A stretch of 64,000 nt of DNA from Mobula hypostoma. Lineage: Eukaryota. Made by a program: the position numbers and the translations under genes. Numbering within the stretch: the first letter of the stretch is position 1; each line of letters starts with the position of its first letter. The DNA is taken from NCBI RefSeq assembly GCF_963921235.1, contig NC_086097.1:124746001-124810000 (forward strand), read 5' to 3'. Positions 38,192-39,820 of this stretch are shown here, one piece after another. Under the pieces are notes generated by a model. It made no database searches. It had not been told where the DNA came from and worked only from the letters and a program-made list of their open reading frames with translations.

Positions 38192-39820
38192 CAGTTGAAG
38201 TCAGAAGTTTATATACACCTTAGCCATGTACATTTAAACTCAGTTTTTCACAATTCCTGACACTTAATCCTAGAAAACATTCCCTGTCTTAGGTCAGTTA
38301 GGATCACTGCTTTATTTTAAGAATGTGAAATGTCAGAATAATAGTAGAGAGAATGATTTATTTCAGCTTTTATTTCTTTCATCACTTTCCCAGTGGGTCA
38401 GAAGTTTACATACACTTTGTTAGTATTTGGTAGCATTGCCTTTAAATTGTTTAACTTGGGTCAAACATTTTGGGTTCCACAAGCTTCTCACAGTAAGTTG
38501 CTGGAATTTTGTTCCATTCCTCCAGACAGAACTGATGCAACTGAGTCAGGTTTGTAGGCCTCCTTGCTCGCACACTCTTTTTCAGTTCTGCCCACAAATT
38601 TTCTATCGGACTGAGGTCAGAGCTTTGTGATGGCCACTCCAATACCTTGGCTTTGTTGTCCTTAAGCAATTTTGCCACAACTTTGGAGGTATGCTTGGAG
38701 TCATTGTCCATTTGGAAGACCTATTTGTGACCGAGCTTTAACTTCCTGGCTGATGTCTTGAGATGTTGCTTCAATATATCCACATAACTTTCCTTCCTCA
38801 TGATGCCATCTATTTTGTGAAGTGCACCAGTCCCTCTTGCAGCAAAGCACCCCCACAACATGATGCTGCCACCCCCATGCTTCACGGTTGGGATGGTGTT
38901 CTTCGGCTTGCAAGCCTCACCCTTTTTCCTCCAAACATAACGATGGTCATTATGGCCAAACAGTTCAATTTTTGTTTCATCAGACCAGAGGACATTTCTC
39001 CAAAAAGTAAGATCTTTGTCCCCATGTGCACTTGCAAAGTGTAGTCTGGCTTTTTTATGGTGGTTTTGGAGCAGTGGCTTCTTCCTTGCTGAGCAGCATT
39101 TCAGGTTATGTCGATATAAGACTCGTTTTACTGTGGATATAGATACTTGTCTACCTGTTTCCTCCAGCATCTTCACAAGGTCCTTTGGCTGTTGTTCTGG
39201 GATTGATTTGCACTTTTCGCGCCAAAGTATGTTCATCTCTAGGAGACAGAATGCGTCTCCTTCCTGAGCGGTATGATGGCTGCCTGGTCCCATGGTGTTT
39301 ATATTTGCGTACTATTGTTTGTACAGATGAACGTGGTACCTTCAGGTGTTTGGAAATTGCTCCCAAGGATGAACCAGACTTGACATCATTTTCTGACCTC
39401 AATCTGATAGAAAATTTGGGGGCAGAACTGAAAAAGCATGTACAGGCAAAGAGGCCTACAAACCTGACTCAGTTACATCAGTTCTGTCTGGAGGAATGGA
39501 ACAAAATTCCAGCAACTTACTGGGCAAAGCTTGTGGAAGGCCACCCAAAACATTTGACCCAAGTTAAACAATTTAAAGGCAATGCTACCAAATACTAACA
39601 AGTGTATGGAAACTTCTGACCCACTGCGAAAGTGATGAAAGAAATAAAAGCTGAAATAAATCATTCTCTCTACTATTATTCTGACATTTCACATTCTTAA
39701 AATAGTGATCCTAACTGACCTAAGACAGGGTATGTTTTCTATGATTAAATGTCAGGAATTGTGAAAAACTGAGTCCAAATGTATTTGGCTAAGGTGTATG
39801 TAAACTCCTGACTTCATCTG
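38192..39820 (-). mobile_element. Sleeping Beauty-family (salmonid-type IR/DR) Tc1 transposon with two right ends
   Basis: TA TSDs at 38190-91 and 39821-22; terminus cagttgaagtcagaagttt; inner DR cagtgggtcagaagtttacatacac; both ends carry the SB right IR/DR interior. Confidence 0.95.
38420..39382 (-). pseudogene. SB-like DD34E transposase pseudogene, missing about the first 19 codons
   Basis: KSGSSLGAISK...GRRR...WSDETK...MDND.KH...WPSQS.DL.PIENLW...KGNATKY*; frameshift near 39185, stop at 38721-23, frameshift near 38475. Confidence 0.95.

Follow-up and report, generated by a model that had tools for sequence, protein, structure and literature searches.

Judging from its ends and its coding remnant, the element at positions 38192-39820 of the window (the whole stretch of Mobula hypostoma DNA analysed, 64,000 nucleotides) is a non-autonomous derivative of a Sleeping Beauty (SB)-type transposon. 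Very probably it belongs to a non-coding subfamily whose copies have a right end on both sides (R/R); this subfamily would have had a single microhomology-guided origin and would then have made hundreds of cut-and-paste moves with transposase supplied in trans. In this genome, R/R is the majority form of its SB-type family, ahead of the forms that have a left and a right end (L/R).

The element is 1629 bp long and lies between the two copies of a TA target-site duplication, at 38190-38191 on the native right-end side and at 39821-39822 on the side of the new end. The native right IR/DR (38192-38418, minus strand) carries an outer DR at about 38192-38220 and an inner DR at about 38387-38418; together with the 3' end of the ORF it forms the native arm (38192-38621, minus strand; 434 nt in the majority of the family), which is mirrored at the opposite end. 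The transposase remnant (38420-39382, minus strand) runs from codon 20 to the stop in several frameshifted pieces, without a start codon and with a readable DD34E triad. On the plus strand, the junction begins with CTTG (39379-39382), a 4-nt microhomology common to the codon 19/20 region and the 5' UTR. It is followed by a 10-nt 'filler' (39383-39392), which is a remnant of the native 5' UTR, and by CTG (39393-39395), a 3-nt microhomology common to the UTR and the opposite strand of the 3' part of the ORF. An inverted copy of about the last 68 transposase codons (39393-39598, plus strand) then leads into an inverted right IR/DR (39600-39820, plus strand), which serves as the new left end. Aligned over 435 columns, 38192-38621 and 39392-39820 are 91.3% identical (E=1e-176), and the DR pairs are spaced 197 nt at both ends. 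The insertion has split an older dispersed repeat, traced by flank alignment to 38160-39945, which we take to be SINE-like. Rejoined at one TA, the flanks align without a break to three other copies of this repeat, and the insertion site is therefore clean.

Are both ends truly right ends? Copies elsewhere in the genome that keep the native left end have a true left IR that is distinct, with only 68-76% similarity to the right IR, so both ends of the window copy must be right ends. Window alignment and comparison with these copies thus uphold the earlier note, which had described two right IR/DR ends with TA on both sides in 1629 bp; the left IR that it reported missing is indeed gone, along with its half-DR-like motif and the 5' UTR. 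The transposase also breaks off near codon 20, as proposed, with positions 20-51 of the Pfam HTH_SB profile matching from the first residue of the remnant. The inverted arm has the proposed length of about 430 bp but starts at 39393 rather than 39392; in 28 of 28 new arms base 39392 is part of the filler, and in 17 of 18 native arms a different base stands there. A filler does separate the breakpoints, though it measures 10 nt (39383-39392) and not about 9, and it is templated from the native 5' UTR. An Rfam scan of 36000-42000 gave no match.

The window holds other repetitive features. Two long tandem arrays (3690-4900 and 20159-22229) have repetitive open frames in several frames, and fragments of LINE endonuclease and reverse transcriptase frames, presumably CR1-like, occur at 27144-30903 and 58840-59775. 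A 156-aa integrase-like frame lies at 1797-2267.

The assignment to the Sleeping Beauty clade of DD34E Tc1 elements draws on both coding sequence and ends. The transposase is SB-like: in a phmmer comparison with the SB100X catalytic domain (PDB 5CR4), 112 of 123 aligned residues are identical (E=1.6e-73), and the PAI subdomain matches PDB 2M8E from codon 20 (E=4e-14). Pfam HTH_SB exceeds its cut-off in the remnant, Pfam DDE_3 is also matched, and in the translations 34 residues separate the second D and the E of the triad. IR/DR ends of about 225 bp, each with an outer and an inner DR, and the TA duplication are likewise those of the clade, and the element terminus agrees at 26 of 27 bases with an SB primer printed in PMC5224488. 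An autonomous SB-type element it is not, since the left IR, the ATG and codons 1-19 are missing and frameshifts are present. Nor is it a MITE (under 1 kb, internally deleted, with little coding sequence): the median length of R/R copies is 1634 bp (n=53 with both ends), and the sequence from codon 20 to the stop is kept. It has the features of an end-replaced Tc1/mariner element, namely an inverted end copy that includes coding sequence and a common breakpoint at independent sites. A plasmid search for SB vector ends gave no match, and a protein search of longer relatives gave 13 matches among 986 candidates, all Tc1-type and uninformative on the ends.

Junction and motif counts were taken across the 3.48-Gb genome assembly. 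The junction is amplified genome-wide, as had been envisaged: a gapped junction pattern has 335 exact matches and its control none. Matched 23-nt patterns that differ only in their last two bases found 365 R/R against 94 other sites, 89 of which run on as native sequence, and a right-IR motif has 988 matches against 86 for a left-IR motif. At the first 30 right-motif loci the junction is present in 23. These loci correspond to 25 distinct elements, comprising 19 with the junction, four with two right-type ends and no junction, one with a left IR and one left unresolved. Exact matching recovers the junction in 9 of 19 cases, the right motif in 63 of 145 arms and the left motif in 18 of 29. The counts suggest totals of roughly 800-1000 R/R and 130-220 L/R copies, with loci drawn mostly from the first contigs. 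R/R outnumbers the internally deleted L/R form (L/R-deletion) about four to one or more. No left/left form was found among the 30 of 86 left-motif loci examined. A misassembled junction is ruled out by its presence at hundreds of independently diverged loci, and a one-off rearrangement by the genome-wide counts. A sequencing-data lookup with an 80-nt junction stretch, from which four words were sampled, listed 24 runs, which came from 10 studies and 8 coded organisms; no RNA run was on record there as containing the stretch. Four runs viewed over 39000-40300 all have depth in the bins around the junction, and among the contigs listed none bridges it.

How did the left end come to be replaced? 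The decisive clue is the filler, which two copies with a full 5' UTR, L066 and L067, show to be native 5' UTR. A 17-nt junction match that includes both microhomologies occurs at a single place in the native element, in the UTR, and this rules out an untemplated filler. The sequence path in the window copy can thus be followed base by base. It runs along the ORF to CTTG at codon 19/20 and resumes at CTTG in the UTR, skipping 176 nt that include the ATG; after 10 nt of UTR it passes at CTG onto the opposite strand of the 3' part of the ORF and continues to the right end. Counted from the left end, it first exits the native sequence at 449 nt and exits again at about 263 nt; it then lands 434 nt from the right end. 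Altogether 449 native nucleotides are replaced by 444, as a loss of 176 and a gain of 171.

Under the preferred reading, repair synthesis on one element would have slipped 176 nt at the 4-nt microhomology and copied 10 nt of 5' UTR. Synthesis would then have restarted on the opposite strand of a right arm, primed at the 3-nt microhomology; the arm could have been the element's own, folded back, or that of a sister, and would have been copied to the end. The product has an outer and an inner DR at each end, four in all and natively spaced, such that transposase could have paired the ends and inserted the element at TA without the half-DR enhancer. A genome motif search for an intermediate with the 176-nt deletion and the left IR present gave two matches, neither of that kind.

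The earlier note had proposed a single template switch across paired transposon ends, in register and keeping length. The near-constant size, 444 for 449 nt, is real and is what such a switch predicts, and the arms do occasionally exchange sequence in register (51 copies have 62 mirrored variants where 15.5 are expected); the path may even be seen as an excursion to the UTR with a return near the original register. However, the switch onto the right arm departs about 263 nt from the left end and arrives 434 nt from the right end, so that it misses the register by 171 nt, there are two jumps rather than one, and a filler made of UTR is no by-product of paired ends. Moreover, the variant copy L068 pairs the same first jump with a different second jump. 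A single in-register switch is therefore distinctly unlikely, and it is the cancelling of two offsets, not one length-keeping event, that leaves the size near native. The near-native length may reflect chance or a filter.

A second route is possible, though on balance not probable: the founder may have arisen by deletion between two neighbouring copies lying 5' to 5', as a local hop might place them, with the 3-nt microhomology as the point of joining and the spread unchanged. For the mariner lineages Rpmar49 and Rpmar17, the part of PMC4678618 compared proposes such a two-copy deletion. It would also give identical arms if the copies were donor and daughter, and the short microhomologies suit end-joining as well as template switching. 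Against it, two rare events are required, an adjacent inverted pair and a separate 176-nt deletion that ends 10 nt from the second break; breaks 10 nt apart would arise more simply in one multi-jump synthesis. Fold-back synthesis and two-copy deletion yield the same product.

Whichever template was used, the preferred reading holds that the product then moved by transposition. Flanks, length and divergence were examined in 104 R/R copies, from loci on C1, C2, C5, C9 and C12. TA adjoins the new end in 82 of 90 copies and the native end in 49 of 63, and it is found on both sides in 36 of the 53 copies with both ends in the locus; all 90 new-end flanks are unique. Many copies at different TA sites had been predicted for R/R transposition, and that is what the new ends show. 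The target is palindromic around the TA, with A three bases 5' in 38 of 49 and T three bases 3' in 65 of 82. Because the sampled copies occupy unique TA sites, R/R most likely moved as a unit, with transposase apparently supplied in trans. The copies differ from their majority sequence by about 3.7%, and in the family consensus the two arm majorities are identical over 434 nt. Both arm majorities have three diagnostic bases that are absent from the L/R-deletion majority. The commonest L/R-deletion allele at position 195 occurs in none of 76 R/R native arms and in 18 of 26 L/R-deletion copies. Together, the identical arm majorities, the shared diagnostic bases and the absent allele point to one founder and to transposase made elsewhere.

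The arms have since diverged, as had been stated, although not with full independence. Across 51 copies, the two arms of the same copy share 62 non-CpG variants where 15.5 are expected (maximum 31 in 5000 permutations), about four times more sharing than expected; about 7% of arm variants have passed across, in short tracts. An initial impression from 16 copies that the arms never exchange sequence (6.6% divergence within copies against 7.0% between) was overturned by the larger sample. Sharing also occurs between copies. Pairs separated by under 3 Mb have 2.8 variants per kb in common, whereas distant pairs have about 0.55; the neighbour level is some five times the distant one and fades by about 6-12 Mb. 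The excess is dome-shaped, low at both element ends, and extends to R/R and L/R-deletion neighbours, which have 15 variants in common in 11 pairs (1.44 against 0.52 per kb). A dome-shaped pattern that crosses subfamilies suggests distance-dependent ectopic gene conversion. Local hopping was rejected as the source of neighbour similarity because the sharing is patchy, dome-shaped and crosses subfamilies. After the burst, the copies would have decayed to about 3.7% from the majority while short conversion tracts passed between arms and neighbouring copies, and the R/R family could be used as a natural reporter of gene conversion.

Could conversion, rather than transposition, have spread the junction itself, by gap repair of resident L/R copies, with R/R seldom or never transposing? 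The high sharing among neighbours within 3 Mb (2.8 against about 0.55 variants per kb) shows that conversion operates here, and almost no full-structure L/R copies are left. The new arm has less of the neighbour excess than the native arm does, which is only partly accounted for and is the strongest point for such a process; in addition, right ends alone failed to support transposition in one assay (described in part of PMC3952818). On the other side, a dome shape and sharing across subfamilies are what ordinary short conversion tracts produce, and 0 of 76 R/R native arms carry the L/R-deletion allele seen in 18 of 26 L/R-deletion copies. Swapping a 440-nt end would call for a homologous stretch towards the flank, and all that the two forms have in common there is the 27-nt terminus; hundreds of complete conversions would also be required. 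Spread of the junction mainly in this way is very improbable. Since ectopic conversion is real and one tract, in L133/L134, seems to span the junction, a few junctions may nevertheless have spread without transposition.

What remains of the L/R copies? All left-motif loci examined (30 of 86) have a deletion of about 175 nt or slightly more, which takes out the ATG and the UTR and cuts into the inner DR. These copies (L031-L059 and L071-L100, for example G000:C1:26549188-26552210) form a non-coding subfamily of about 1.47 kb in which the left IR is kept and about 175 nt are missing; in length the deletion nearly equals the 176-nt first jump of R/R, but its breakpoints are different. The start codon and full 5' UTR are kept in only two copies found, L066 (C58:77.19 Mb) and L067 (C81:17.92 Mb), both with early stops. 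L067 has the three R/R diagnostic bases and L066 has those of the deletion subfamily. Divergence from the majority is 3.75% for R/R (n=43) and 3.89% for L/R-deletion (n=37). Being equally old, the two forms stopped at about the same time, and so a single burst yielded two non-coding parasites, R/R and L/R-deletion.

Some copies depart from the main R/R structure. L068 (C1:18443150-18446214) is an R/R variant of 1615 bp with TA on both sides; its first jump matches that of the main R/R form and is followed by 49 nt of UTR, which stop at the left inner DR, by a 34-nt patch apparently assembled from local short repeats, and by an inverted arm about 345 nt long. Two origins fit L068: it may be a repaired R/R copy, or a sister product derived from the deleted parent that also gave rise to R/R. 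An L068-type junction was rejected as a second family because it occurs as a single copy. L109, L121/L122 and L126 are shorter, with two right-type ends and without the main junction, and are probably deletion products of R/R copies; L126 is about 440 bp long, with only an outer DR at one end.

What ended the burst? R/R copies might have acted as hairpin-RNA silencers that helped to end the activity of the family. For the arms of the window copy, folding predicts a duplex at -661 kcal/mol in which six stretches of 24-77 nt pair perfectly, and R/R (3.75%) and L/R-deletion (3.89%) did stop at about the same time. Such silencing is nonetheless doubtful. With the UTR and left IR lost, read-through from host transcription would be required, R/R amplified massively while transposase was present, and the near-total loss of coding copies accounts for the stop by itself.

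The preferred reading, in which R/R was mobilised in trans, raises the question of whether two right ends can work. Constructs with two right ends reportedly scored below those with two left ends in the 2002 primary SB paper. In the working model of SB, as given in parts of PMC7827188 and PMC5224488, transposase loads first at the left inner DR, aided by a left-only half-DR enhancer, which is an enhancer and not essential (PMC7827188). A half-DR-like motif, with two mismatches to the DR core, is found in the left IR of the present family and not in the right IR, so R/R lacks it. An assay in HeLa cells, in section 8 of PMC3952818, gave no transposase-mediated event in 30 colonies for SB without the left IR, and 5 in 70 without the right IR. 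The result argues for poor pairing of right ends by themselves, at any rate when they lie on separate molecules, and counts against R/R movement. The relevant part of PMC4505599 states that SB prefers two copies of one end, without naming the end.

Features of the R/R ends may have offset the missing enhancer. One core base sets the left inner DR apart from the other three DRs in all L/R copies examined (the deletion form, L066 and L067). In R/R both inner cores are perfect and the spacing is native; the surviving L/R-deletion competitor has neither feature. Both features bear on SB activity in the part of PMC5224488 compared: higher inner-DR affinity raised transposition to 175%, and internally deleted substrates were mobilised less well, which suggested an optimal spacing. 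We hypothesise that perfect inner cores and native spacing may have favoured R/R over the shorter L/R-deletion form. The competitor is itself damaged, and copy number is therefore no proof that R/R is the better substrate; because L/R-deletion lacks the perfect cores and the spacing, the 4:1 ratio is no clean comparison of R/R with wild type. Abundant end variants need not be better substrates, as noted in part of PMC6362248. A stronger proposal, tentative and somewhat unlikely, is that the native transposase moved R/R as well as or better than L/R, the half-DR enhancer and left-first assembly being dispensable in vivo given perfect inner DRs and native spacing, and that promoterless R/R came to make up some four fifths of the family, starving or silencing the autonomous element. 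As judged from genomic copies, R/R amounts to a natural deletion experiment in which most of an SB-family burst came to consist of the form without a left end. R/R provides a natural cassette for probing end asymmetry, inner-DR affinity and the spacing rule, which bears on SB vector design.

In its basic architecture the element resembles Sleeping Beauty and the salmonid Tss1-type IR/DR Tc1 elements (PMC7827188 and PMC6362248, in the parts compared; PDB 5CR4, 2M8E, 5UNK), with two DRs per end, DD34E and a TA duplication. At about 1.64 kb it is also close to the 1638 nt of SB. Unlike SB, R/R lacks the left IR, the half-DR and the start codon and has only 10 nt of the 5' UTR; it has perfect arms of 434 nt that include ORF sequence, and most copies of its family in this genome are of this form. 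According to parts of a ray-finned fish survey (PMC9777934), SB is recorded for ray-finned fish and one mollusc only, and SB TIRs measure 44-415 bp, the 3' TIR partly overlapping the ORF. End replacement is not described for SB-clade fish elements in the parts of that survey compared, and R/R junction motifs had no match in the part of its supplement searched. Because SB TIRs reach 415 bp there, R/R-like forms may sit unrecognised among fish elements with long TIRs.

End replacement is a known kind of rearrangement, having been published for the mariners of Rhodnius (PMC4678618) and Drosophila (PMC4161770), both compared in part. In the Drosophila mariner MITE sublineages Dromar7, 11, 28 and 36, it has likewise produced unusually long TIRs. 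There, the 3' part was replaced by the 5' part; these sublineages are among the most successful non-autonomous ones, and the origin of the rearrangement is called elusive (PMC4161770). They differ in left/left polarity, short length and simple TIRs. A natural R/R Sleeping Beauty family was not found in the literature searched, a scope outside which lie most subscription papers, Repbase and Dfam. As far as that search extends, what is new is an asymmetric full-length SB-clade IR/DR element with replaced ends that is the dominant form and whose junction consists of two microhomology jumps. The junction shows at base level how end replacement can arise, the step left open in the mariner literature; the mode is two microhomology jumps with a templated remnant. 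The closest parallels are the Rhodnius mariners Rpmar49 and Rpmar17, in which the 5' end is replaced by an inverted 3' part, giving non-autonomous elements with long, transposase-containing TIRs, and Rpmar49 was likewise amplified from one founder (PMC4678618, in the part compared). These are shortened mariners with one short binding site per end, and Rpmar49 has 13 copies (PMC4678618), whereas R/R is an asymmetric full-length IR/DR element with hundreds of copies that share one junction, resolved into two microhomology jumps.
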